Origin: Candidatus Woesearchaeota archaeon
Lineage (GTDB): Archaea; Nanobdellota; Nanobdellia; Woesearchaeales; UBA10216
Length of the DNA: 64,000 nt
NCBI GenBank assembly: GCA_016180065.1
Contig: JACPBY010000006.1
Location: forward strand, 3,233 to 67,232
Reading direction: 5' to 3'
Every line of letters starts with the position of its first letter. Within the stretch, counting starts at the first letter, position 1. Below, one piece after another: positions 6,395 to 47,982 of the stretch. The position numbers were made by a program, and so were the translations under genes. The notes below the pieces were generated by a model. The model had not been told where the DNA came from. It saw only the letters and a program-made list of their open reading frames with translations, and did no database searches.

Positions 6395-7315
6395 CTACAG
6401 GGCAAGCACCAGATACGGCCCCACAAGGCAAAAAACCCTGTTGGTAACATCAATGGAATGATGTATGAGCCAGTAATCGGCGTAAGTCAGCTTTTTCTTA
6501 AACAGGTCATGTGCGCGGTCAATTATCTTATTGCGGTCGTTCTTTAAGGCAACAACCTTTCTTGCGTCAAACTTGTAAAATATTTCGTAATAAGACCTGA
6601 CCATCCGGCTTGAGGATGCAAACAAGTCAACAACCTCCTTGTTAAGCTTGACATTGGCAGAGTTCAGATTGGCAAAATGATGGCAGATGTACTTGAACTG
6701 GTCAGCAATGTGCTCCAGTTCCTCGACTATGTAATAAATTGGGCCCAGCTTGTTAAAATTGAAGGCACTATTCTTTTTATTTAAGGCTCGCCTGCAGATG
6801 ACAGTAAAGCGGTTATTCGCTTCTTCCAAAAACGCAACGTTCTTCAGGTGCGCATAGTTTCCCTCCTTAAAAGCCGAAACCGCATCTTCAGCCATGTTAA
6901 CCAGAAGCAGGAATATTCTTCGCAAAAGCGAATCAAACTCCTCAATAACGCCGGAAACATATTTAACTATGCAATAATTCTGCCCCTGCTCAAGAACCTC
7001 AAACCCTACCGCCTCCTTCGAAATTGCTTCCTGAACTACTGCTGCCATTGCAGGCTCATTAAAAGTTACTTTCAGCTCATCAACCCCTCTTTTGTAAAGA
7101 GAACGAATAGCCCGGGGGGTCATATCTGCCAAATCGCTGATGTTGATTTCAGCCTTCTCAACTGTTGGGGCATTGTTGACATGAATTACAACCTTGTCCC
7201 CATCCTCCTGCACGTCAAGCTCGGCACCTTTTTGCACATTATGGGCCTGGGCCCACTTTCTTGGCAGGGAAATAAGCTGCGTTGAGCCGGCAATCTGAAT
7301 TACTTTTCGCTTCAT
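6395..7315 (-). CDS. AbrB/SpoVT-domain plus PhoU-like phosphate uptake regulator homolog
   Basis: The N-terminus KVIQIAGSTQLISLPRKWAQAHNVQKGAELDV is an AbrB-type swapped hairpin. The C-terminal helical repeats are typical of archaeal PhoU-like proteins. A G-rich SD-like run lies upstream. Confidence 0.8.
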   Translation of the reverse strand: MKRKVIQIAGSTQLISLPRKWAQAHNVQKGAELDVQEDGDKVVIHVNNAPTVEKAEINISDLADMTPRAIRSLYKRGVDELKVTFNEPAMAAVVQEAISKEAVGFEVLEQGQNYCIVKYVSGVIEEFDSLLRRIFLLLVNMAEDAVSAFKEGNYAHLKNVAFLEEANNRFTVICRRALNKKNSAFNFNKLGPIYYIVEELEHIADQFKYICHHFANLNSANVKLNKEVVDLFASSSRMVRSYYEIFYKFDARKVVALKNDRNKIIDRAHDLFKKKLTYADYWLIHHSIDVTNRVFCLVGPYLVLAL

Positions 7316-7518
7316 TTATAAGACACCCCCCTGATTTTGATAAAGTTTATAAAAACAGGATTTAATCTGAGAAAAGACGGGCTTATTTAAAGTTTTCTGT
7401 TTTTATGAAAAACTTATACTTTTTATAAAATATAACCAAAAGCTATATAAGAATGGCCGACTACCCGCTTACAGTTCATGTAACGGTTTGAAGGGGGCAA
7501 AGGGGGTAAAAAGGGAAA

Positions 7519-7878
7519 ATGAAATCAAGGACAGCTTTCTCCTTAAAGGATGAATGCGTGCTGTGCGGGGATGCCATAACCAATCCCATATGCTTCACAT
7601 GCTTGGAGTCTGAAGTTGAAGACTGGCTTTCCGACAGGATGCCCGGCCTCCTGACAAGGCTCAGAAGAACAGGCAAGATGTTCGCTTCCTACACTCACCA
7701 GGGAACAAGGTGCATCTTATGCGGGGACAACATGAACGTCTGCTCCCACTGCTACTGCTACGAGGTCAACAGGCTTTTTGAAAACTACCCGAGGCTTGCG
7801 GAGGAGTTTGTTGATTTCTTTAACTTCGAGCTTCGGGGCAGCACCCAGTGCGCCAGGCCGGAGATGCCCTTGCAATAA
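7519..7878 (+). CDS. Cys-rich putative zinc-binding protein
   Basis: CVLCG..CFTC and CILCG..CSHCYC motifs, 119 aa. Confidence 0.55.
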   Translation: MKSRTAFSLKDECVLCGDAITNPICFTCLESEVEDWLSDRMPGLLTRLRRTGKMFASYTHQGTRCILCGDNMNVCSHCYCYEVNRLFENYPRLAEEFVDFFNFELRGSTQCARPEMPLQ

Positions 7879-30713: not shown

Positions 30714-31463
30714 TTACGGCACGTTTCCTGCAAGGGCGGCCTTGGCGGTGCCGGTATAGACTGCTGCGCTGACAGCTGCCCCGAGAGGAGCTGCCACATC
30801 CGGCATCAGCTCCAGCTTTGGCAGGTAGGGAAGGCCAATTGGGGGGAGGGCAACAAGCCCGGCTGTCAGCGGAATATCAATGGCGGCGAACACCAGCAGG
30901 CCTGCTGGCACAACCTTCGCGGCAACCCCCAGCGTTTCCAAAAGCGTACTGGCAACTACCGATACTAGCCTAGCACTGCCCTTGTGCCTGATGCTGTTAA
31001 TGCCAGACAGCACCAGATACGTCCCGAACAGAACTGCTCCTGTTGTCAGCTCACCACCCATAAAGCCACCGCCGATTGCCTGAGCATAGCCATTCCCGAC
31101 AACGCTGCCTGCAGCCTCAGCCCCTTTAAATGCGCCAAAGATGGCAACAGCCTCGCCAGCAGCCAAAGAATGAGACAGGCGCTTCTTCTTATCAGCAAAG
31201 GGGTCGTGGCCAGAGGCAAAGCCGTTGCGCAAATAAGTAACCACGTCAAGAGGAACAGAAGCAGTATCGTTCACAACCCTGATGGCACCGCCGCCAATGG
31301 CTTTTGCGCTGTTCAGCGGATGCCTTGCAAGCGAATAATATAGGCTGCCGATTTGATGGGCAGTGTGCAAAGCGACCCTGCCACCACTAACCAAAACACG
31401 GCCTGCATTGCCTTGCTGCGAAGCTTCACCAACAATGACCTCAAGCCTATCGGAGCTTGCCAT
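30714..31463 (-). CDS. G/A-rich hypothetical membrane protein
   Basis: 249 aa with Gly/Ala-rich hydrophobic segments in the C-terminal half. Confidence 0.5.
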   Translation of the reverse strand: MASSDRLEVIVGEASQQGNAGRVLVSGGRVALHTAHQIGSLYYSLARHPLNSAKAIGGGAIRVVNDTASVPLDVVTYLRNGFASGHDPFADKKKRLSHSLAAGEAVAIFGAFKGAEAAGSVVGNGYAQAIGGGFMGGELTTGAVLFGTYLVLSGINSIRHKGSARLVSVVASTLLETLGVAAKVVPAGLLVFAAIDIPLTAGLVALPPIGLPYLPKLELMPDVAAPLGAAVSAAVYTGTAKAALAGNVP

Positions 31464-31542: not shown

Positions 31543-32730
31543 TCATTTAGCCCTTTTTCCGCCAAACCACAGAGAGAATATGCTGACGCACTTGTGGTCC
31601 TTGGCTTTCTTGAGGAAGCCGCATCTTAGCTTTTGGCAGCTGTTGGTTTCGTAATCAAGGAACTCATCACCGCTGCAGACAACGATGACGTCTTTGCAGA
31701 CATGATTGGCAGCAGTCTGCCCTTTTTGGCAGTTGAGCTTGCTGCAGCTCTGGTTGAAGACATACTCATCTTCCGCGCATTCCAGCTTTTCACAGCCGTG
31801 CCCGGCCACAGATTCATCAAACCCGCAGCTTAGCGGCTGGCAATTCCTGCTGCTGCAAACATAACCTGAGTCGCAGTCCAAATCAGTGCAGCAATCATAG
31901 TCCATGCAGGTGTGGTTGGAAACGTACTGGCATGATGCACAGCTTATGGGAATGCAGGAGCTGTCATCGCACCGCTCATCCTGAAGACACTCACCATCCT
32001 TGCTGCAGGAAGGCCTGCTGGTGCACACGAACGAGTCGTAGAACTTGTACTTTTCTGTTTCACAGTCGTCATACCGAACGCTAAGCTTTGAAATATTAAA
32101 AGGAGCCTGCCACCTCAGCGTGTAGGTGTTCGAGCCAACCCTTCTGACCCTGCTTATGTTAATCTTCTCAAATTCAGGGCTTTTAATGTCCAGGGAATGC
32201 GTCAGCTCCCTTTTCTTGCCGCCAACAGTTGCAGTGGCATCGTATCTCAGCATGAACGGCTTTTCAAACCTGAACTCATTCTTCTTGTCGTAACGATAGC
32301 TGTAAGCGGTGTATTTTGCAATAAATGTGTCGTTGCGCTTGTAGCAGCTGTTGATGGTGAGGTTAATGAGCCTGCAGCTGAACTCAAATGCAGGGCAGGT
32401 AACGCCATAACTTTTCTTGTCAACCGTGATAGTATAAGCGCCACCCTTAACGTCAACCACAGCCATGTCCTCAGAAGTGAATTTGTAGAGGCCGTTGGCC
32501 ATCTCTCTCCACAAGCCCCCGACTGCCTTGGAAGAGCCGCCGCTCTTTTTAATTGAGACAGAGCTGCCCCTGTCATCAAGGTTTGTGATGCTGAATGCGC
32601 CCGTATCCGTGCAGTGAGCCTCCACAACAGGCTTTGCCTGTTGCGCCTGGGCTGCGGCGGAAGCAGAGAGCAGCACTGCCAGTGCCAAAGAAGCGAGCAG
32701 CAGTACCGCAACAGCAGCCTCTTTTTTCAT
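31543..32730 (-). CDS. secreted Cys-rich protein
   Basis: N-terminal signal peptide MKKEAAVAVLLLASLALAVLLSASAAAQA. The C-terminal third holds repeated C..L.C modules (CQPLSC, CEKLEC, CSKLNC, CQKLRC). Confidence 0.7.
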   Translation of the reverse strand: MKKEAAVAVLLLASLALAVLLSASAAAQAQQAKPVVEAHCTDTGAFSITNLDDRGSSVSIKKSGGSSKAVGGLWREMANGLYKFTSEDMAVVDVKGGAYTITVDKKSYGVTCPAFEFSCRLINLTINSCYKRNDTFIAKYTAYSYRYDKKNEFRFEKPFMLRYDATATVGGKKRELTHSLDIKSPEFEKINISRVRRVGSNTYTLRWQAPFNISKLSVRYDDCETEKYKFYDSFVCTSRPSCSKDGECLQDERCDDSSCIPISCASCQYVSNHTCMDYDCCTDLDCDSGYVCSSRNCQPLSCGFDESVAGHGCEKLECAEDEYVFNQSCSKLNCQKGQTAANHVCKDVIVVCSGDEFLDYETNSCQKLRCGFLKKAKDHKCVSIFSLWFGGKRAK

Positions 32731-32824: not shown

Positions 32825-35596
32825 ATGGGAAAAGAGGCAAGAGGCTTTTCTTTAGCCGGAGCAGCTGCAACAGCTGTCATGTTTTGCCTATCACTCCTGC
32901 TTCTGGCATCAGCCGTTGCTGCCCAGGACGATGGAGAAGAGGAATTCTTGGTTGAGGAGGAACTTGTTCCTGAAGAGAGCGCAGGGGTAACGCCCGACAG
33001 CCCCCTCTACATTCTTGACAAGATTGTTGACAACGTGCAGCTCGCAATGGCAAAGGGGGATGACAAGACAAGGAAGGCTTTGGAAATAAAGGAGGAAAGG
33101 ATAGCAGAAGCTTCGGTAATGGTGGACAAGAAAAAGCCAGGCGCCGCCCAAAGTGCGCTTGAGCTCGCAACAAAGGCTGCAGAGCAGGCGCGGAGAGACA
33201 TCTCGCCTGAACTTGAGAAAGAAACCAACGAAAATGTAAGGCGGGCTGCAAAGCTCCTGAGCGGCCTGGAGGAAAAGCTTTCAGACACGGAATGGGAAGA
33301 AGCCAGGAAAGCGCTTGACGCCCAGCTCAGCGAGGAGGAGAGAGTCAGGGTAGCAATGCTCGTTTCAAAAAGCAGGCTGAGCTACTGCGACTCTTTGGCC
33401 AAACAGGATTTTGACCTCATGAAGGGCGATGAGCTGTGCCAGATAGAAAAAGCCCCCGACTGGCTGAGAGGCAGGGTAGAGGGCGAGTTCAGGGCAAGGG
33501 AAGACAATGCCCGGAAGCAAATAATTGACTCAGTCAGCACATGCGTAATTGACCCGAAAAAATGCGACTGCAGCCAGATACCCGTTGCCAAGCACAGCCA
33601 GGACTGCGAGGTCAAAAAGGCACTGGCAATACGGTGCGAATACGAGAACGACAACGACGCATGCGCGGAGCTTTCTTCTGAAAAAGCAGAGGATTTACTG
33701 CCGGAGTTTATCGGAGAAGAGGGGAAAGGAACTGTTTTGGAAATACTAAAGAAAAAAGAGCAGCAAATGTTTGAAAAGTTCAGGCCGCCGGAATGCGAAG
33801 CAGCTGCAACGTTTGAGGAGTGCTTCCAGGTGATGAAGGACCTTTATGGAACACCGATGCAATGCGAGGGCCTGAGCGATGAAGAGTGCATGGATTTCAT
33901 TAAACGCAACCCTCCAGGAGAGAAGCCCAACTTTCCGCCAGAATGCAATGAAGCCGGCGTGCAGGAGCCACTTAAGTGCGCAGAACTCATGTTCAGCAAG
34001 TACGGAACGCCACCACAATGCGAAGGCCTTGACACGAGGGAATGCATGAAGCTGATGAGGCAAGAGAGGCCCGACGCAATGCAAGGGGCAATGCCTCCGG
34101 AATGCCAGGAAGCAGGGGTAAAAGAGCCGAGGCAGTGCTTTGACATAATGACTGCAAAATATGGCACCCCGCCGGAATGTGAAAGCTTAAGCAGCGATGA
34201 CTGCTTTAAGGAGATGATGAAGCGGGGACCTGGTGAAGGGCAAGGCCAGCAAGGCGGGGGGCAGGAAACTCCGGAGTGCCAGGAAAAAGGCGTAAAAGGC
34301 AAGGACTGCTTCCTGTTAATGACCGAGCTTTACGGGGGACTGCCACAGGAGTGCGAAGGGCTGGGCACTGACGAATGCTTTGAGAAAATTATGAAGGGAG
34401 GCCCCGTAAAAGGAGAGCCCCCAGTAAGCTGTGTCGGATTAAGCCCTGAGGAGTGCAGGGCAAAGATGCAGGAAATGAACGGGCTTCCGCCGGAATGCGC
34501 ACATAATCCAGAGCAGTGCCAGCAAGCGTTTGAAGGCAGGGGAGTGCCCGGAGGAATACCTGCAGAATGCGCAGGCCTGGAGCCAGAGCAGTGCGAGCTT
34601 GTAATGATGCAGAAGTTTGGGCCTCCTGAATGCAGGAACGCCAGCAAAGAAGAATGCGAAGCTATAATGAAGGAGAAATACGGGGAAGGCGGCTTTGGAG
34701 GAGCACCCGGTCCTGGCAGCCCTGGCCCAGGCGGTGAAGGAGTATTCGGAGGCAGAGGAGGGGGATTTGAAAATGAGTGCGAAGGCCTGGCAAGGGAAGA
34801 GTGCGATAAGAAAATGTTTGAAAAGTTTGCTCCCCCCGAATGCAGCGGCATGGCAAAAGAAGAATGCGACAAGGCAATGCGGGAAAGATTTGAAAACAGG
34901 GGCGGACAAGGCGGAATTATGCCGCAGCCGCAAGGGATTCCTGCAGGATGCGAGGGCTTAAGCCCGGAAGAATGCAACCAAAGAGGCATGCCACAGGGGA
35001 TTCCCCCTGAATGCCAAGGGCTCGGCGAAGAAGAGTGCCGGCAGAGATTCTCTGAAAGCATAAGGCAGGGCGAGAGAATGGAAGAGAGAGAAAGGCGCGA
35101 AGCCCCGCCAGGTTTTGAAGAAAGGGGATTTGAGGGCAGGCAAGGGCCTGGGCCTCAAAGAACAGAAAGGCAGCCGCTTCCCGGGGAAGGCAGACTACAA
35201 GAATGTGAAGGACTCTCACCTGCAGACTGCGGCAGGAGAATAGAAGAAACGATGAGAGACAGGTTTGCACAACAGATGCCGCAAGGCTTCCAAGAGAGAC
35301 AAATCCCGCAAGGAGAGCAAATGAGGCAGCAACCGCCAATGGGACAGGCTGAACGCATAGAGCGCATTGGGCAACAGGAAGGTTTCCCAGACAGGCAATA
35401 CCCGCAGCAGCAATCACAGCCTTTTGAACAACGCTCATCAGAGCCGCAGATGGAAAGAGAGCAGCCACAGTCAATGCCGCCTGGCAGCGAAGGCGGGGGC
35501 GGTGGAGAAGAGCGGGGAGGAGAAGGCTCGCCATCCCCTGCTGAAGCAATAACCGGGCAGATAATCAAGGCGCTTAAATGGGTGGGCGGGAAATAG
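32825..35596 (+). CDS. large secreted repeat protein (923 aa)
   Basis: Has a signal peptide. The N-terminal helical region resembles DUF5667 by eye (SPLYILDKIVDNVQLAMA). Then about 20 Cys-pair units follow, and the tail is Q/E/R/G-rich. Confidence 0.8.
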   Translation: MGKEARGFSLAGAAATAVMFCLSLLLLASAVAAQDDGEEEFLVEEELVPEESAGVTPDSPLYILDKIVDNVQLAMAKGDDKTRKALEIKEERIAEASVMVDKKKPGAAQSALELATKAAEQARRDISPELEKETNENVRRAAKLLSGLEEKLSDTEWEEARKALDAQLSEEERVRVAMLVSKSRLSYCDSLAKQDFDLMKGDELCQIEKAPDWLRGRVEGEFRAREDNARKQIIDSVSTCVIDPKKCDCSQIPVAKHSQDCEVKKALAIRCEYENDNDACAELSSEKAEDLLPEFIGEEGKGTVLEILKKKEQQMFEKFRPPECEAAATFEECFQVMKDLYGTPMQCEGLSDEECMDFIKRNPPGEKPNFPPECNEAGVQEPLKCAELMFSKYGTPPQCEGLDTRECMKLMRQERPDAMQGAMPPECQEAGVKEPRQCFDIMTAKYGTPPECESLSSDDCFKEMMKRGPGEGQGQQGGGQETPECQEKGVKGKDCFLLMTELYGGLPQECEGLGTDECFEKIMKGGPVKGEPPVSCVGLSPEECRAKMQEMNGLPPECAHNPEQCQQAFEGRGVPGGIPAECAGLEPEQCELVMMQKFGPPECRNASKEECEAIMKEKYGEGGFGGAPGPGSPGPGGEGVFGGRGGGFENECEGLAREECDKKMFEKFAPPECSGMAKEECDKAMRERFENRGGQGGIMPQPQGIPAGCEGLSPEECNQRGMPQGIPPECQGLGEEECRQRFSESIRQGERMEERERREAPPGFEERGFEGRQGPGPQRTERQPLPGEGRLQECEGLSPADCGRRIEETMRDRFAQQMPQGFQERQIPQGEQMRQQPPMGQAERIERIGQQEGFPDRQYPQQQSQPFEQRSSEPQMEREQPQSMPPGSEGGGGGEERGGEGSPSPAEAITGQIIKALKWVGGK
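33781..35230 (+). repeat. in-frame degenerate tandem repeats encoding (P)PEC-x-GL-x2-(E)EC units
   Basis: Recurring PPECE, PPQCEGL, PQECEGLGTDEC, PAECAGLEPEQC, NECEGLAREEC, PPECSGMAKEEC, AGCEGLSPEEC, PPECQGLGEEEC, LQECEGLSPADC. Confidence 0.7.
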
Positions 35597-35632: not shown

Positions 35633-36274
35633 ATGAAGCTGTTATCAATAGGTGCGGAAGCGACAGTTTACGCCAATGATAAAATCAAGGCTGTAGTAAA
35701 GCAGCGCCAGCCGAAGGGCTACAGGGCGAAAGAGCTTGACGACAGGCTGCGGCTGTCCAGGATGCGAAGAGAAGTAAAAGTTATTGAGGCGCTTCAGCAG
35801 CTTGAAATCCCAGTTCCAAAGCTGATTGGCTCTGATGAGAAGACAGCAGCGATAACGATGCAGCTCATTGAAGGAAGGAAAGCAAGGGATGTTTTAAGCG
35901 GCGACAACTACCGTGGCATCTGCAGCGAAATCGGAAAATCAATTGGCTTAATGCACAAAAACAACATGATTCATGGAGACCTGACCACTTCCAACATGAT
36001 TATTGGAAACAACAAGAGAGTTCACTTCATAGACTTCGGGCTGAGCCTGTTCAGCAACAAGGACGAGGACAAGGCAGTTGACTTGCACCTGTTCAGGCAG
36101 GCCCTGAACAGCAGCCACAGCAGGATTGCTGAAAAATGCTTTGATGCTGCAATAGCGGCTTACAAAAAAGCCAACAGCAGTGGCTGGAAAGCAGTGCTGA
36201 ACAGGCTTGAAAGGGTAAAAGGAAGGGGAAGGAACAAGGGAAAGAACAAGCCTGACCGAGCGGAAAGCAGGTAA
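35633..36274 (+). CDS. bud32: Kae1-associated kinase Bud32 (KEOPS subunit), stand-alone
   Basis: Contains GAEATVY, HGDLTTSNMI, IDFGLS. About 210 aa with an atypical small kinase fold. An A/T box lies 24 nt upstream. Confidence 0.88.
   Translation: MKLLSIGAEATVYANDKIKAVVKQRQPKGYRAKELDDRLRLSRMRREVKVIEALQQLEIPVPKLIGSDEKTAAITMQLIEGRKARDVLSGDNYRGICSEIGKSIGLMHKNNMIHGDLTTSNMIIGNNKRVHFIDFGLSLFSNKDEDKAVDLHLFRQALNSSHSRIAEKCFDAAIAAYKKANSSGWKAVLNRLERVKGRGRNKGKNKPDRAESR
36170..36239. repeat. direct repeat A (inside the bud32 3' end)
   Basis: 69 of 70 nt identical to 37595..37664. Confidence 0.9.
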
Positions 36275-36282
36275 AGATTAAT

Positions 36283-37506
36283 CTATTCGAGAAGCCATTT
36301 CCAGACGGGCTTGATTATTATCTTTTTTCCCTCAATCGCAAATTCATCATCCTGATTATAAGTTAAAATAAGCCCGTCTTTTAAGCTAAACAGTTTTAGG
36401 GCAGTAAGCAAGCCGTTTATTTCCCTGCCCTTAGTCTCTTCATTAAAATCAGAGCAGACTTGAATTGCGGCAGTTACCCTGCCTTTTTCCTTAATCACAA
36501 AATCGCATTCATTCTTCTCCCTGAAATAAAAAATGTCCCTGAATTTCCTTCTCAAACCCAAAAAAACAGTGTTTTCAAGCATTTTCCCAACATCTTTAGA
36601 GAAAGAGGCGGAATTATTGCAGGAAAGCCCGTTGTCTACGGAATAAGCCTTTTTGGGATTTACCTGCTGCTTCTTGTATGAATAGCTAAAACGGGGCACT
36701 GTAAAGAGCAGATAAGCGTTTTCGAAGTAAGAAACATAATCAATAACACTCTGGACAGACTTAATCTCAAACATTTTCTTAATCGAATTGTATGAGAACT
36801 CCTTTCCAACATTGCTAATCAAAAAAATGGCAATTTTAGTCAGGATATTTGTGTTTTTAATGCCAAACCTTATCGCGATATCCTTCATAACAATATCTGA
36901 AAGCAATTCATGAAGAATCGAAGGATTTGCCTTTTTAAGATACTCCGGAAACCCTCCCCCGTAAAGGTATCCCTCAAAGGACTCAATTGAGGGATTTTCC
37001 TTATTCAGGTTGAGAAATTCCCTGAATGAAAATGGAAACATCTCCATCTGGAGATGCCGCCCAGTCAGCTTTGTGCCAAGCTCCCCGCTTAAAAGCGATG
37101 CGTTAGAGCCAGTTATGACAATCCTCTCTTTTTTGTCAATCAGGTACCTGATGAATTTTTCCCACTTGCCTATGTTTTGTATCTCATCAAAAAAATATGT
37201 GCCGCCTTCCCCAAAAAGCTCCTTCATTATAGCTTCAGCCTTATTAAAGTCAGAAAGCTCAAACCCATCTAAACGCGGGTCTTCCAAATTCAGGTAGTGC
37301 CAGTTTTTCTGTTTTCTTAATAACTGGTTGAGGAACGTGCTTTTCCCGCACCTTCTTACCCCTGTGATTATAAGGGCAAAAGAGTCTTCTATCCTTAGCT
37401 CCCCTTCTTTTTCCCTCGGAGTTCCAGGGTCCAGCTTAGCTAAGGACTCTTTTTGGGAAACTATAACCTCCCTCAATGTTTCCTTGGTTATCATGATGCA
37501 GGCCAT
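36283..37506 (-). CDS. AAA+ ATPase of the COG1373 / DUF4143 type
   Basis: Walker A ITGVRRCGKST, Walker B-like TYFFDEIQ, and a C-terminal DUF4143-like region ending with a restriction-endonuclease-like ECDFVI. Confidence 0.85.
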   Translation of the reverse strand: MACIMITKETLREVIVSQKESLAKLDPGTPREKEGELRIEDSFALIITGVRRCGKSTFLNQLLRKQKNWHYLNLEDPRLDGFELSDFNKAEAIMKELFGEGGTYFFDEIQNIGKWEKFIRYLIDKKERIVITGSNASLLSGELGTKLTGRHLQMEMFPFSFREFLNLNKENPSIESFEGYLYGGGFPEYLKKANPSILHELLSDIVMKDIAIRFGIKNTNILTKIAIFLISNVGKEFSYNSIKKMFEIKSVQSVIDYVSYFENAYLLFTVPRFSYSYKKQQVNPKKAYSVDNGLSCNNSASFSKDVGKMLENTVFLGLRRKFRDIFYFREKNECDFVIKEKGRVTAAIQVCSDFNEETKGREINGLLTALKLFSLKDGLILTYNQDDEFAIEGKKIIIKPVWKWLLE

Positions 37507-37527
37507 AACTTCAAAAGTATTTAAATG

Positions 37528-37566
37528 TTTCTATTGACAATAGACAATAGTTTCTATTGACAATAG
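37528..37566. promoter_or_regulatory. two copies of TTTCTATTGACAATAG (each containing the palindrome CTATTGACAATAG), 23 nt apart, just upstream of the ATPase gene
   Basis: Exact 16-nt direct repeat at 37528..37543 and 37551..37566, with an extra half-site ACAATAG between them. Begins 22 nt from the ATPase start codon. Confidence 0.45.
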
Positions 37567-37594
37567 AAAGAAGGCTGGACAGCGGCAGAACCAT

Positions 37595-37664
37595 CCAACA
37601 GCAGTGGCTGGAAAGCAGTGCTGAACAGGCTTGAAAGGGTAAAAGGAAGGTGAAGGAACAAGGG
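37595..37664. repeat. direct repeat B (copy of the bud32 3' end)
   Basis: The single G-to-T mismatch relative to copy A creates a TGA in the bud32 reading frame (..LERVKGR*). Confidence 0.9.
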
Positions 37665-37714
37665 GAAAAATCCAAAGCAGAAAATATATAAACGCCTAGG
37701 CGTAATCCTGCGTT

Positions 37715-37855
37715 ATGAAGCAAGAGACAGTCACAATCACGAAAGAGGAATATGATAAGCTTAAGAAACAATCACAAATAGACATGGACATACTGCACCA
37801 GCTCGTGAGCAGCTTTAAAGACATAAAGGAAGGAAGAGTAAGGAGAGTCAAGTGA
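37715..37855 (+). CDS. possible orphan antitoxin-like small ORF (46 aa)
   Basis: Encodes MKQETVTITKEEYDKLKKQSQIDMDILHQLVSSFKDIKEGRVRRVK. The C-terminal DIKEGR motif is shared with the ORFs flanking relE. No toxin gene lies adjacent. Confidence 0.35.
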   Translation: MKQETVTITKEEYDKLKKQSQIDMDILHQLVSSFKDIKEGRVRRVK

Positions 37856-37895
37856 TTATTTCCCGACCATATTCCTTATCTCATCCTTAAAATAA

Positions 37896-38225
37896 TCAAG
37901 CAACAGCGACCAGTTTAGCGTGCTTGGCAAAGTAATTTTCGGTCTCCTGTTCAAGCAACTTCTTGTAGACATCAATAAGGCGCACAACGGCCTCGTTTTC
38001 CTCGTTTAGCTTAAACAGCTTGGCTTTCCCTATTTCCCTGGTCGGAATGACAATTCTAAGGCCTACAAACTCTTTCCAGAGCCGGCTAAGTGTCGCCCAG
38101 CCAACATTGCTATTTCTAGCTATATCTGACATAGAATAGTCAAAACCCCTATATTTTATCAAATAGTTCAGTATCTTAACCTTAGGCGTGTACCCAAATA
38201 CCTTCACAAAGATTGTTTGTTCCAT
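37896..38225 (-). CDS. winged-helix transcriptional regulator
   Basis: KILNYLIKYRGFDYSMSDIARNSNVGWATLSRLWKEF is a typical HTH plus wing. Confidence 0.7.
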   Translation of the reverse strand: MEQTIFVKVFGYTPKVKILNYLIKYRGFDYSMSDIARNSNVGWATLSRLWKEFVGLRIVIPTREIGKAKLFKLNEENEAVVRLIDVYKKLLEQETENYFAKHAKLVAVA

Positions 38226-38230
38226 TTTTG

Positions 38231-38254
38231 TTACCTAATAGCCATTACCTAATA
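38231..38254. promoter_or_regulatory. direct repeat TTACCTAATA x2 (14-nt period) immediately upstream of the wHTH gene
   Basis: Copies at 38231..38240 and 38245..38254. Candidate operator in a 129-nt divergent intergenic region. Confidence 0.3.
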
Positions 38255-38354
38255 CCTAGCGGAGGGTAGTCAGTATTTAAACCTTTTGTTTTAATACACT
38301 GTTATATCATTTCAGAAGCAACATATTTAAGGGAGCAACATAATCAAGTAAGCT

Positions 38355-38627
38355 ATGGACGATTTGAACAGGGTAAAAAGAGCAATTCTTGATGGTCTTC
38401 TTACACCTCCACGATGGGGAGGCAAGCACACAGATGTCAGAAACCTGAAGAAAGGATTTCCAGCTCCCATTTCAGCAACAAAAGAAGGCCAAAGGCTCAT
38501 GGACGACGCCATCAAGCAGCTAATCAACAGCGGCTGGCTTCTTGCCAAGAAATCCACCGGAGAAATCCACGTATCGCTTAATCCCAGAATGAAAAAGGAA
38601 ATAATGGAGTTTGTAAACAGCCCTTAA
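38355..38627 (+). CDS. hypothetical protein (90 aa)
   Basis: Clean ORF, divergent from the wHTH gene. PPRWGGKHTDVRN motif, family not recognised. Confidence 0.5.
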   Translation: MDDLNRVKRAILDGLLTPPRWGGKHTDVRNLKKGFPAPISATKEGQRLMDDAIKQLINSGWLLAKKSTGEIHVSLNPRMKKEIMEFVNSP

Positions 38628-38644
38628 GATTATTAATAAAACTC

Positions 38645-45866: not shown

Positions 45867-45977
45867 CGCCGGGAGCGGGACAGTCATCCTGCCCAGGCAG
45901 GATTTTGAACCCGCAGGACTGTGTGTGCAGTCACTCGCTTCTGAAGCGAGCGCGTTACCAGATTACGCTATCCCGGC
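45867..45977 (-). tRNA. tRNA-Leu (anticodon CAG) with long variable arm and an apparent 23-nt insertion in the T-loop
   Basis: Hand-folded. Acceptor GCCGGGA/TCCCGGC, D-arm GCGT/ACGC, anticodon arm CTCGC-TTCAGAA-GCGAG, variable arm GACTG-CACACA-CAGTC. The T-stem GCGGG/CCCGC encloses 30 nt (TTCAAA + ATCCTGCCTGGGCAGGATGACTG + T). Confidence 0.7.
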
Positions 45978-46197
45978 GTGCTTTCAAAACTGCCTCTGAG
46001 TATTATTATGGCTTTCTGTGATTTTTCCGTAAATCTTGCGGCAACAACGGACAATTTATGTCTTTACACGGAATTCTTTCGCGAAATCAGGAAATTTGTA
46101 AAATATTTCCGGAATTGTTGAATTATTTGCGGCATGTTTTTAGCAAAGTTTATTAAGGAGTTCACTCTAACAACACTCAGATTGTTGTGTGCAGTTT

Positions 46198-46318: not shown

Positions 46319-46416
46319 TCAACAACCCAACCACAGCAAGCTGCGGGGTATGTAATTCGTTGGGTTCAGGAGAACCAGCAGGTTCTTCGTGCTCAGAACC
46401 GCTGCGGTTCTGACAG
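46319..46416 (+). repeat. structured repeat family, copy 4 (3'-truncated right after the 49-nt module at 46367..46415)
   Basis: Identical to copy 2 apart from about 1 nt. Overlaps the last 8 codons of the minus-strand gene 46393..47982. Confidence 0.8.
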
Positions 46417-47982
46417 CTGCCTGCGCTTCTCCTCGATAATGCGCCTGATTCTTGCTTCGACCTCTGCATCGCTGGGCTGAGAGGAGGATTGAGAAACTGC
46501 CGCTTTATCGCCGCTGCTGCCACCGCTAACACCGCTGCCAAAATTTTCTTCCCTGCTGCTTTTTACAGAACCGCCGCCTTCTTTGCTGCCTGTGCCGCCT
46601 TTCCCCCTGTTTTTCACAAAGAAGAATGCAAGCACCGCCACCATGGCAAACAAAAGCACAGGCGCAAACCTTGCCTGAACCTTTCCAGTGCCAGAGGCTG
46701 TAAGCTTGACGGCCCTGCCGGTTATGCCCACAAAGTCCGATGCCTTCTTAAGCAGCGGCCTTTCATCCTCCAGAAAAGCGTTCTCAACAGGAGAAGAGCC
46801 TGCAATTGTAGGGAAGCTGATGTTGTAGCTGCCTTCTGAAACTTTATCTGTAAGGTCTACCTCAAACGCCTCCCCGGGAGCAAGCTCAACATCATGGGCA
46901 ATAACGTAGCTCTTCCTTCCAGCCAGGGTTATGTTAAATTTCCTTGCGTAGTTCACGTTGCCGGTGTTCCTGAGAACAACGCTCCTGTTGGTAAAGCTCA
47001 CAGCCGCCTCTTCAACGCGCTCAACCACAAGCTGGCTCGCAGCGCTCAGGCCAAAGGCAAAAGAAGCCAATGCATATGTGCCGGGCTTCTGTCCTGCGGG
47101 AAACACCAGGGTGATGTTTTCACCTGTCCTGTTTGAAGCAGAGAGGACAACAGAGCCTGCCGAATCGGTAACCGAAATGTCAACAGATGATTCCATCATG
47201 TCATCCGCCTGGTCATAAACAGAAACCGCAACAGCAAAAGGCTCAGAAGGCTTGATATTCTGGCTGCTCACCGCATTAACTATCCTGGTGGGAACAGCCT
47301 CAACCTCAAACTGCGCAGAGGCTGAGCCGGAGTTGCCGTAAGAGTCATTCACGGCAAATTCCAGGCCATGCAGCCCTGATTTTATGTTTCCTGGCAGCCT
47401 TATGCTGTATGCAAAAGAATTATTATCAACAGATGCTGCGTAGGCTGTGCCGAGGAAGGCCATGGAAACAGCTGCAGGCAAAAAGTGGCTCTTGCCAACC
47501 GCACCAAAAGCTTCAACAGTTTCAGAGGGCAGGTATTTAAGCTTGCCAACCTCAACAGCAACTGACAAAAGGCGGGTGACGTTAAAAACATCCGAGGCTG
47601 CAGTTTCATTCACAGACAAGTCATAAGCTGTTGCATTGGCTGCAACAAAACATCTTCCAAGCATGATTGGGGAAATGCTCAGCCCGGGCACGTCAACCTG
47701 CTGCTTCTCACCCGCGAACAGGTTTGTCGGCAGAGTGTAGAAATCAAGCACAAAGCCTGTGCAGTAAAGCGAAAGCTTTACCAGGCCATTGAAGTCCTGA
47801 TCCCCTGAAAGCCCGTAGCTTGCAACAATCCCGTCCCCGAAATTGTATACTTCCTTGTCAGCCTTTACCGCAAGGTCTGCAGCAGCCGGAAGAGCAAGCA
47901 GGGACAGCCCCGCTACGAGAAAAGCAAACAAAACAGGGAAATGCCCCGCACCACTGCACCTTTTTTTCCCCATTTTAAGCAA
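46393..47982 (-). CDS. surface-anchored protein (signal peptide plus C-terminal TM anchor)
   Basis: N-terminal FPVLFAFLVAGLSLLALPAAA, beta-rich body, C-terminal FAPVLLFAMVAVLAFFFV, then a G/S/K-rich cytoplasmic tail. Confidence 0.7.
   Translation of the reverse strand: MLKMGKKRCSGAGHFPVLFAFLVAGLSLLALPAAADLAVKADKEVYNFGDGIVASYGLSGDQDFNGLVKLSLYCTGFVLDFYTLPTNLFAGEKQQVDVPGLSISPIMLGRCFVAANATAYDLSVNETAASDVFNVTRLLSVAVEVGKLKYLPSETVEAFGAVGKSHFLPAAVSMAFLGTAYAASVDNNSFAYSIRLPGNIKSGLHGLEFAVNDSYGNSGSASAQFEVEAVPTRIVNAVSSQNIKPSEPFAVAVSVYDQADDMMESSVDISVTDSAGSVVLSASNRTGENITLVFPAGQKPGTYALASFAFGLSAASQLVVERVEEAAVSFTNRSVVLRNTGNVNYARKFNITLAGRKSYVIAHDVELAPGEAFEVDLTDKVSEGSYNISFPTIAGSSPVENAFLEDERPLLKKASDFVGITGRAVKLTASGTGKVQARFAPVLLFAMVAVLAFFFVKNRGKGGTGSKEGGGSVKSSREENFGSGVSGGSSGDKAAVSQSSSQPSDAEVEARIRRIIEEKRRQLSEPQRF

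Follow-up and report, generated by a model that had tools for sequence, protein, structure and literature searches.

The 3' end of bud32, the gene of the KEOPS kinase Bud32, probably carries a mobile cassette in the DNA analysed here, a stretch of 64,000 nt of contig JACPBY010000006.1 (hereafter, the window) from a host that is a Woesearchaeota-type DPANN archaeon. The evidence points to a cassette that was integrated homologously at bud32 and has been spread horizontally. It extends from 36227 to 37650, or over an equivalent register within a 56-nt repeat that borders it, and forms a 1424-nt unit of one gene and its promoter, with no other mobility genes. Its parts would be a PDC-S01-type ATPase gene, a palindrome-controlled promoter of its own, a 27-nt end, and a surrogate bud32 3' end. 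The features of the locus are the following (an asterisk denotes a stop codon throughout).

35633..36274, plus strand: bud32, encoding the KEOPS kinase Bud32 (213 aa), in its cassette-bearing form; Pfam matches RIO1/Pkinase/Kdo
36171..36246, plus strand: repeat copy A (attL-like), of which 36171-36226 is identical to copy B and to the empty-site allele
36227..36274, plus strand: replacement bud32 end (GRNKGKNKPDRAESR*), the portion past RGRNKGK being the cassette-associated tail type
36283..37494, minus strand: the cassette gene, encoding a AAA+ ATPase (403 aa in the form on record) with a DUF4143 (PD-(D/E)XK-like) C-terminal domain, of the PDC-S01 type
37518..37525, minus strand: TATA-like box (TTTAAATA), about 25-30 nt upstream of the ATPase ATG
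37530..37567, no strand assigned: two 15-bp palindromes TCTATTGACAATAGA, starting at 37530 and 37553, 23 nt apart
37568..37594, plus strand: the 27-nt cassette end (AAGAAGGCTGGACAGCGGCAGAACCAT), between the palindromes and copy B
37595..37670, plus strand: repeat copy B (attR-like), a displaced fragment from the 3' part of bud32, in which a TGA (37651-37653) is in frame
37671..37693, plus strand: decayed rest of the native bud32 tail, with the relic ..KAENI* out of frame at 37675-37691

The attL/attR-like repeat had been noticed in an initial annotation of the window, and it is real: 36171-36246 and 37595-37670 are identical at 73 of 76 positions, the first 56 of them without exception. The count of 69 identities over 70 nt given there was correct, and so was the single G-to-T difference (G36227 versus T37651), owing to which copy B ends as ..NRLERVKGR* and copy A goes on as GRGRNKGKNKPDRAESR*. 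Its offset of 1425 nt and its start of copy A at 36170 have to be corrected to 1424 nt and 36171. A weaker similarity between the two copies picks up again around the stop region of bud32 (GCGGAAAGCAGGTAAAG versus GCAGAAAATATATAAAC). No third copy of the repeat is present in the window, and 100 shuffles gave 0 matches. As had also been stated, the ATPase gene (36283-37494, minus strand) and its upstream region are the sole content between the repeats. The G+C content of the interval from 36200 to 38600 is 0.38-0.43, and that on either side is 0.46-0.57.

An empty site with a single copy of the repeat, for which the initial annotation had proposed to look, was indeed found. A search with the Bud32 protein led to a protein of 198 aa with 100% identity to residues 1-198 and the terminus ..VKGR*, the end that copy B predicts. 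The contigs encoding this protein (L095-L097) come from three sequencing runs. Two of them, L095 and L097, which originate from different runs (SRR12113383 and SRR12113401 are the runs showing the empty path), match the window at 100% up to 36226, continue directly with 37651, and run into the 46-aa open reading frame (ORF) that follows copy B; exactly 1424 nt are missing from both. From 37651 on, copy B and the empty-site allele are identical. The third contig, L096, breaks off precisely where the 56-nt repeat ends. In the collection with the empty allele, no contig encodes the exact ATPase protein, and neither the exact 407-aa and 403-aa forms of the ATPase nor the 213-aa Bud32 had a match in the contig index. 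A cluster look-up showed the exact Bud32 and ATPase of the window to be on record from one NCBI contig, of 81,937 nt, only.

The cassette recurs at bud32 in other lineages. All loci with an ATPase at least 87% identical to that of the window and with enough flanking sequence are located at the 3' end of bud32, except for one pair (L100/L101, see below). At L009, L010, L092, L093, and L098 the ATPase gene lies tail-to-tail with bud32, and in the short contigs L094 and L099 the end of bud32 is visible. The Bud32 proteins encoded beside these ATPases are just 56-74% identical to that of the window. The divergence of the two adjacent genes was discordant. Between the window and L098, the ATPases are 95% identical at the amino acid level with a synonymous divergence (dS) of 0.23, whereas the Bud32 proteins are 74% identical with a dS of 1.59; between L092 and L093, the dS values are 0.34 for the ATPase gene and 1.44 for bud32. 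For the remaining cross-lineage pairs, dS reaches up to 0.65 for the ATPase gene and ranges from 1.4 to saturation for bud32. The sister pair L009/L010 is the sole concordant one (0.81 for the ATPase gene, 0.72 for bud32). The G+C content of the ATPase genes is 0.39-0.41, that of the hosts 0.47-0.54. The low dS of the ATPase gene compared with the high dS of the adjacent bud32 thus argues for horizontal spread to the same site. The cassette lineage would accordingly move among Woesearchaeota, with bud32 as its usual landing place.

The C-terminal end of Bud32 differs between occupied and unoccupied loci. In all relatives, Bud32, whose homologues are annotated as Kae1-associated kinase Bud32, ends with ..RGRNKGK and a short tail. 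All sequenced relatives have the conserved basic tail RGRxKGK, as does the allele with the cassette, and the 198-aa allele of the empty site lacks it. Within the KEOPS complex, this basic C-terminal tail has been reported to touch Kae1. Since the relatives share the ..RGRNKGK end, copy A carries the conserved end of the gene and copy B the broken native one. The tail that follows has the form [SN]KP[DGY][QR]AE[NS]x* in the window, in L092, and in L094. The same tail DNA with an earlier stop is found in L098, the tail is shortened in L010, and in L093 and P0133 the bud32 frame reads into the antisense of the ATPase gene end. At cassette-free loci, Bud32 ends with G*, S*, KAT*, MPTASSP*, or the common native form GWKGGEAENI*; native bud32 tails are present in P0138, P0139, and P0158. 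As judged from the sequences compared, the tail type that follows RGRNKGK in the window is found only where the cassette adjoins.

The junctions at the other loci indicate which parts travel together. The 27-nt end past the palindromes, the region of the ATPase stop codon, and the cassette-type Bud32 tail all accompany the ATPase gene. The 27-nt end is 67-96% identical across the cassettes of the window, L092, L098, L002, L010, and L100, the last of which is at a non-bud32 site, and in all six it terminates at the same nucleotide (+/-2). The idea that this end is an older piece of bud32 was dropped; the similarity was not above that of shuffled controls, except marginally in the window. A hairpin of 10 pairs, four of them G-T, can form on the minus strand at 37574-37599 of the window, comprising the 27-nt end and the first bases of copy B. 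Its TGGA/TCCA in the window is TGGG/CCCA in L092, a change that looks compensatory. A scan for bacterial promoters and terminators, which is uninformative for an archaeon, flagged solely a hairpin rich in wobble pairs at this end.

Both in the window and in L092, copy B agrees with copy A of its own genome, including host-specific substitutions, and the tail is of the cassette type in copy A and of the native type in copy B. In L092, 72 of 74 positions of copy B equal its own copy A, with L092-specific substitutions, and are followed by the intact native tail GKRWKGGEAENI*. In the window, the 56 nt equal to copy A are followed by a damaged native tail, with the TGA at 37651, a frameshift, and the relic ..KAENI*. 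The left part of copy A is thus of the host and its right part of the cassette, and in copy B the order is reversed. Such hybrids are what recombination of the chromosomal gene with a bud32-like segment on the cassette would be expected to yield. The identity of the two copies ends after about 56 nt in the window and after about 66 nt in L092; these differing end points fit crossovers within a homologous stretch, and not a fixed cleavage site. Older, decayed B copies are present in L098, L002, and L010, and their left parts are 72-76% identical to the bud32 of the window, compared with 59-63% to that of their own host. It would therefore appear that a copy of the repeat travels with the cassette. 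In L002 the palindromes and copy B have been kept, and other genes are found where the ATPase gene would be.

These loci also bear on the reliability of the assembly. An artefact, with one contig threaded from two variants of the strain, or from a chromosome without the cassette and a free circle of 1.4 kb, that have at least 55 nt in common, could be suspected because the exact repeat (56 nt) is barely longer than a common maximum k of 55, and because the empty allele is known from the same habitat. However, in independent assemblies the ATPase gene is physically linked to bud32 and, at its opposite end, to rpoK or other genes, the decayed or absent copies B in L093, L098, L009, and L010 could not mislead an assembler, and L092 has a host-specific repeat of its own. 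Moreover, even a free circle with 56 nt identical to the host bud32 would imply an earlier integration. The chance that the structure is an artefact is therefore next to negligible.

The same cassette was also found with other flanks, for which the initial annotation had suggested to look. L100 and L101 encode an ATPase that is 95% identical at the amino acid level to that of the window, at a location between two PIN-domain genes; L101 belongs to the same genome bin as the bud32-linked L092. Both have retained the palindromes and the 27-nt end, and next to the ATPase stop codon they carry a cassette-type tail fused to a relic of bud32, KKIYFVDFGLSLFSSK. They are flanked by a new direct repeat of about 32 nt of local sequence, with 31 of 32 positions matching. 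The relic of bud32 together with the fresh duplication indicates that the unit left a bud32 site and entered an unrelated one. Such an arrival at a new site would be a rare event that generates a fresh long target duplication.

Flanking repeats are common in the family of this ATPase. For metagenome homologues that are 56-79% identical to the ATPase and none of which is located beside bud32, 450 nt upstream of the gene were aligned with 380 nt downstream of it. Direct repeats with a score of at least 20 flank 19 of 64 testable loci, with lengths of 32-211 nt, whereas none of 73 control genes of at least 250 aa from the same loci reached this score (Fisher p = 1e-7); the reverse-complement controls yielded one repeat at a score of 20 and none at 25. 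The possibility that flanking repeats are a general trait of these genomes was rejected, since none of the control genes has them. The repeats consist of 3' or 5' ends of ordinary neighbours, such as genes for a PAP2 phosphatase, GatC, TrmB, a CBS-HTH regulator, and PMT_2 glycosyltransferases, and in each pair one copy is intact and the other is a fragment. The distance from the repeat to the promoter is 55 to 362 nt, and that from the stop codon to the repeat is -32 to 296 nt. Transposon-like termini conserved family-wide were also considered and rejected, the inner flanks being unrelated between subfamilies and variable in length. At L015, a relic of the 3' end of an ATPase gene lies within the upstream repeat, which suggests a tandem stage.

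The distribution across lineages could in principle be explained without any mobility, by an old segmental duplication that has been inherited vertically, homogenised by gene conversion, and repeatedly lost by deletion. The diverged B copies in L098, L002, and L010 are of the kind that the initial annotation had named as evidence for such an origin, the divergences of the ATPase gene and bud32 are concordant in L009/L010, and direct repeats permit precise deletion. Against this, the dS of the ATPase gene is 3- to 7-fold below that of the adjacent bud32 across lineages, the G+C content of the cassette is foreign in every host, and the old B copies are closer to the bud32 of another lineage than to that of their own host. 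Furthermore, a copy with a bud32 relic and a new duplication exists elsewhere, in a bin that also holds a copy at bud32, and the excess of repeats extends family-wide to many targets. The discordant dS values and the L100/L101 locus largely refute a segmental duplication, which is highly improbable.

The initial annotation had interpreted the locus as an integrated element that carries a replacement end of bud32, and the empty site, the tail confined to cassette-bearing loci, and the low divergence of the cassette support that interpretation. In the mechanism we propose, integration at the 3' end of bud32 would occur by homologous recombination, of the Campbell type or of the gapped 'ends-in' type, between the gene and a bud32-like segment borne by the cassette, and it would be carried out by host functions, not by an integrase. 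We infer a circular intermediate, the reliance on host recombination, and any role that the ATPase itself may have. The attL-like product, copy A, would be the host bud32 fused in frame to the RGRNKGK-NKPDRAESR* end of the cassette, and in the attR-like product, copy B, the displaced end of the host gene would follow the end of the cassette. The cassette could be excised again if A and B recombine, and both states are found in the sampled population.

The absence of an integrase, also claimed initially, was borne out: the Pfam scan revealed none in about 9 kb upstream and 10 kb downstream, and the scanned ORFs of the region from 27 to 49 kb contain no integrase or transposase domains. No integrase is present among the called genes of L009-L011, L092, L093, L098, and L100, either; the sole related finding is a transposase gene of the IS200/IS605 type (Y1) in L092. 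This gene (155-583) is located about 0.9 kb upstream of the cassette on a 3.5-kb contig and was not seen beside other cassettes. A classical integrative element whose tyrosine or serine recombinase is encoded elsewhere and acts in trans, the 56-76-nt repeat being the attachment (att) core, would account for the presence of the cassette at the same gene end in diverged hosts and for the attL/attR-like layout with a replacement 3' end, as known from elements at the 3' ends of tRNA and protein genes. However, there is no integrase in the cassette, in about 10 kb around it, or among the called genes of the related loci. In addition, the extent of the identity differs by genome, repeat length and target vary across the family, and the repeat in each genome is specific for the host and not for the element. 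Mobilization by such a recombinase is thus very unlikely.

Several points weigh against homologous integration of a mobile cassette at bud32. The empty-site contigs come from an assembly with k=31, so that the repeat (56 nt) exceeds k and the path may be mis-threaded; yet two samples pass the repeat unbranched, which is not as expected if the cassette were present at similar coverage. The data are assemblies only, and neither a circular form nor junction-spanning reads were seen. Presence and absence by themselves could also fit deletion between the repeats instead of insertion, and the empty allele may be either ancestral or the result of a secondary deletion. The perfect 56 nt beside the damaged tail of copy B call for either gene conversion or a very recent integration into a bud32 that had been truncated before, whereby the cassette would restore the conserved tail; a recent integration and an older insertion with gene-converted repeats fit equally well. 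The comparisons of the old B copies cover about 36 nt each, and in L093 and L009 the cassette is at bud32 with copy B undetected. Finally, homologous integration cannot explain the first arrival at a new site, exemplified by the 32-nt repeat of L100.

The cassette gene encodes a protein with matches to the Pfam families AAA_14 (PF13173; 2e-37, 128 bits) and DUF4143 (PF13635; 1e-21, 78 bits), both of which are above the curated cut-offs, and to the PADLOC model for PDC-S01 (PDLC04787; E = 3.5e-110 over residues 39-407); it falls into COG1373. PDC-S01 is an ATPase fused to a domain of the PD-(D/E)XK superfamily that is abundant in archaea and has been transferred between domains of life; it is included in PADLOC-DB as a single-gene phage-defence candidate, and validation is pending for most of these candidates (PMC12988326). 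DUF4143 is listed within the PD-(D/E)XK nuclease superfamily (PMC3424549). In an alignment of 93 sequences, the Walker A motif GxRRCGKST and the Walker B motif FFDEIQ are invariant or nearly so. The acidic residues of the nuclease-type motif ECDF..IQVC are likewise invariant, and in 91 of the 93 sequences Q and C take the place of (D/E)-x-K. The AlphaFold model has a mean confidence (pLDDT) of 74, with values of 84-96 for the C-terminal domain. Foldseek yielded weak matches (TM scores of 0.2-0.4) to STAND/AAA+ ATPases, MuB, ORC, and Card1/Can2, which permit no decision on function; a solved structure related by sequence was not found, and there is no NCBIfam model.

Thousands of homologues of the ATPase exist in DPANN archaea. 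The window contains no second paralogue, and a scan of viral contigs yielded no confirmed relative. At two other loci, a second, divergent paralogue (37-39% identity) is located within 2.7 kb of the first (L066 1320-2546; L091 5294-6550), which indicates that the family clusters or nests. Homologues at 30-44% identity are encoded on 242 plasmids, 171 of which are from Acinetobacter, and on a few small phage-labelled contigs of 4-7 kb from human faeces.

The TATA-like box is kept in the homologous upstream regions and is inferred to act as the promoter, and the pair of palindromes is presumed to be the operator of the ATPase gene. The palindrome motif is present upstream of the ATPase gene in L009-L011, L092, L093, L098, and L100 and in most homologues down to about 59% identity. 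As it precedes the gene at all bud32-linked loci, the pair belongs to the ATPase gene. The most distant subgroup (56-58% identity; L077, L078, L085, and L091) is without TCTATTGNCAATAGA palindromes, and another tandem motif, ATAGTGTTCATTACTAATG, occurs twice at the same position. This suggests that operator and ATPase protein evolve together.

Instead of the host functions, the ATPase-nuclease might itself insert its gene, by binding to the palindromes and introducing widely staggered breaks, so that gap filling would yield long target duplications of variable length. The flanking repeats of 32-211 nt are specific to this gene family, the 32-nt duplication at L100/L101 is sharp-edged and without homology to bud32, and one end of the cassette lies at the same nucleotide, 27 nt from the palindromes, at bud32 and non-bud32 sites alike. 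A domain of the PD-(D/E)XK superfamily (PMC3424549) is present, and the Walker motifs and acidic residues are invariant. On the other hand, no termini are conserved across subfamilies and the distances are variable, the other end of the unit in L100 lies inside the bud32 relic and is hence imprecise, another residue stands in place of the canonical catalytic lysine (IQVC, in 91 of 93 aligned sequences), and no solved relative points to a transposase. Joining driven by homology is indicated at bud32 by the homologous tail, which is in frame, and by the junction, which varies (56 versus about 66 nt). We consider insertion by staggered breaks unlikely as the explanation of the bud32 locus; it could also be the step that makes new sites, beside homologous re-integration. 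A wider claim, that PDC-S01-type ATPase genes are autonomous single-gene mobile elements whose protein binds its own palindromes and drives insertion with variable long duplications, is somewhat less improbable, and still doubtful. Under this claim, the surrogate end of an essential gene may be kept because it makes integration harmless or, at the truncated Bud32 allele, beneficial.

Homologous integration of the cassette, our preferred interpretation, concerns only part of the accessory DNA at this locus. The gene order DUF5667-bud32-rpoK-rrp42-rrp41-rrp4 is common to the window and six related genomes. In L001, L004, L005, and L006, the stop codon of bud32 abuts that of rpoK or lies within about 25 nt of it; therefore, the interval 36275-38644 of the window is inserted material. 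Beyond the cassette, the following genes are located in it.

37715..37855, plus strand: 46-aa ORF outside the cassette, directly after bud32 in the empty-site allele
37896-38225, minus strand: older accessory gene for a 109-aa HTH-like protein, in the low-G+C interval of the bud32-rpoK gap
38355-38627, plus strand: older accessory gene for a 90-aa protein without known function, in the same interval

The 46-aa ORF follows the 198-aa bud32 in L097, and homologues follow copy B in L092 and are present in L002 (83% identity at the amino acid level). It had been labelled antitoxin-like; no profile match supports an antitoxin, and there is no significant family match. The AAAATATATAAA stretch within 37671..37693 may be the promoter of this ORF. 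In L002 (region 7085-7549), the homologue converges on a 105-aa ORF without a Pfam match. For the 109-aa protein, initially called a winged helix-turn-helix (HTH) regulator, HTH/Csa3-like matches do exist, but they are weak. Its gene and that for the 90-aa protein form a divergent pair, which is found together again elsewhere in L006 (1076-1752; 49% and 70% amino acid identity, respectively) and so may be mobile as a small module of two genes.

The convergent bud32/rpoK gap is a hot spot, and its accessory genes differ among relatives. It spans 6705-7831 in L002, 6618-8653 in L003, 2943-4811 in L009, and 3387-3662 in L098, and its contents across these relatives include membrane proteins, a 622-aa protein, and a 91-aa ORF; in L003, two adjacent small ORFs are, by size alone, of toxin-antitoxin size. 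Upstream of bud32, as in the relatives, lies the gene for a secreted-looking protein of 923 aa with an N-terminal DUF5667 domain (32825-35596, plus strand), the body of which consists of many degenerate Cys-rich repeats (..PPECEGL..EEC..) that are visible in the DNA as a family of 56-nt repeats. Three ORFs of the window, all on the minus strand, are without a Pfam match at E <= 0.001 (30714-31463, 249 aa; 31543-32730, 395 aa; 46393-47982, 529 aa). No Rfam family matched between 35.5 and 39 kb, and the sole tRNA gene of the window (45889-45978) is 8 kb off.

In the window and its relatives, the site is known both occupied and, from the same population, empty; diverged hosts show several further, independent occupations of it, and one copy at a new site has kept a relic of the old one. 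Long target duplications were noted around restriction-modification (R-M) genes as early as 2000, with neither a mechanism nor an archaeal example so far, and the cassette offers a testable model for them; about 30% of the members of the ATPase family have the repeat signature, so that the question can be tested directly. PDC-S01, listed as the fourth most common 'defence' candidate in prokaryotes, is counted as a defence gene by its genomic location. If the gene is itself a cassette of a selfish, mobile kind, no defence function is required to explain why it occurs in variable regions. If it is autonomous, it would represent a class of elements without a transposase or integrase and would give a mechanism for the insertions with long target duplication noted in 2000. 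As the cassette supplies the Bud32 tail that is missing from the empty allele, its insertion may rescue an essential tRNA-modification factor or create dependence on the cassette. Such a rescue or dependence would concern a reduced DPANN genome.

Among known systems, integrase-type elements (phages, integrative and conjugative elements, and archaeal integrated plasmids) share with the cassette the attL/attR arrangement, the duplicated gene end, and the supply of a replacement 3' end; they are also site-specific, recur across hosts, and have coexisting empty and occupied alleles. Like an att core, the repeat contains 56 identical nt, and copy A restores RGRNKGK, a tail, and a stop codon. In contrast to these elements, the cassette has no integrase, is 1.4 kb long with one gene, and has a host-specific repeat of variable identity. 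Of the features of integrons, an attC-like imperfect inverted repeat at the 3' end of the gene and an integrase nearby are both lacking; furthermore, the stop codon of the ATPase gene is 8 nt from that of bud32, and the cassette has its own promoter, both of which are unlike an integron cassette. The transposase domain and the terminal inverted repeats that would be expected of an insertion sequence are likewise absent, and the duplications are long and variable instead of short and of fixed length. The cassette thus lacks defining features of integrase elements, of integron cassettes, and of insertion sequences, and belongs to none of these classes. Free-standing homing endonuclease genes are similar in that a selfish nuclease-type gene lies between conserved genes and spreads to the same locus via recombination of the flanks, but in the cassette the target is duplicated, the usual nuclease lysine is absent, and there is no known cleavage site.

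In Campbell-type insertion-duplication, a circle with one chromosomal fragment integrates by a single crossover. This predicts the product that is seen here: the fragment is duplicated on both sides, with host plus element on the left and element plus host on the right, and the event is reversible. Most known cases of Campbell-type insertion are from laboratory use or concern plasmids and phages, whereas here a natural single-gene cassette would rely on it routinely. With PDC-S01, the cassette gene shares the profile match and the architecture of an ATPase and a PD-(D/E)XK-superfamily domain. In the literature on DUF4143, COG1373, and PDC-S01 genes, we found no paper on mobility, cassette structure, flanking duplications, or preferred sites.

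The closest precedent is the 'insertion with long target duplication' of R-M gene complexes (Nobusato et al. 2000, Gene 259:99, cited in PMC2853133), rather than att recombination mediated by an integrase. These insertions have variable repeats of more than 30 bp, no mobility genes, and matching empty sites, and their mechanism is unexplained (Furuta, Abe and Kobayashi 2010, PMC2853133); no archaeal case passed the screen of Furuta et al. (PMC2853133). Both R-M insertions and the cassette are small nuclease-related units with deviant G+C content and without a transposase or integrase, both have variable repeats of more than 30 bp that often lie over the 3' end of a neighbour and are present in a single copy at the empty site, and for R-M genes and the ATPase family alike, flanking repeats are significantly more common than for average genes. 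As in the cases selected by Furuta et al. (2010), the repeats exceed 30 bp and vary in length, and the insert is shorter than 20 kb and without other mobility genes; the cargo differs, as there is no methyltransferase but an AAA_14/DUF4143 ATPase alone. The cassette is also unlike the R-M cases in that it consists of a single PDC-S01 gene, occurs in DPANN hosts, and carries a surrogate end of its target gene. The surrogate end and the return to the same gene in diverged hosts argue for homologous integration, which has not been described for the R-M cases. Taken together, the phenomenon is a structural match to the known R-M insertions, to which it adds a surrogate of the target gene and the repeated use of the same site.

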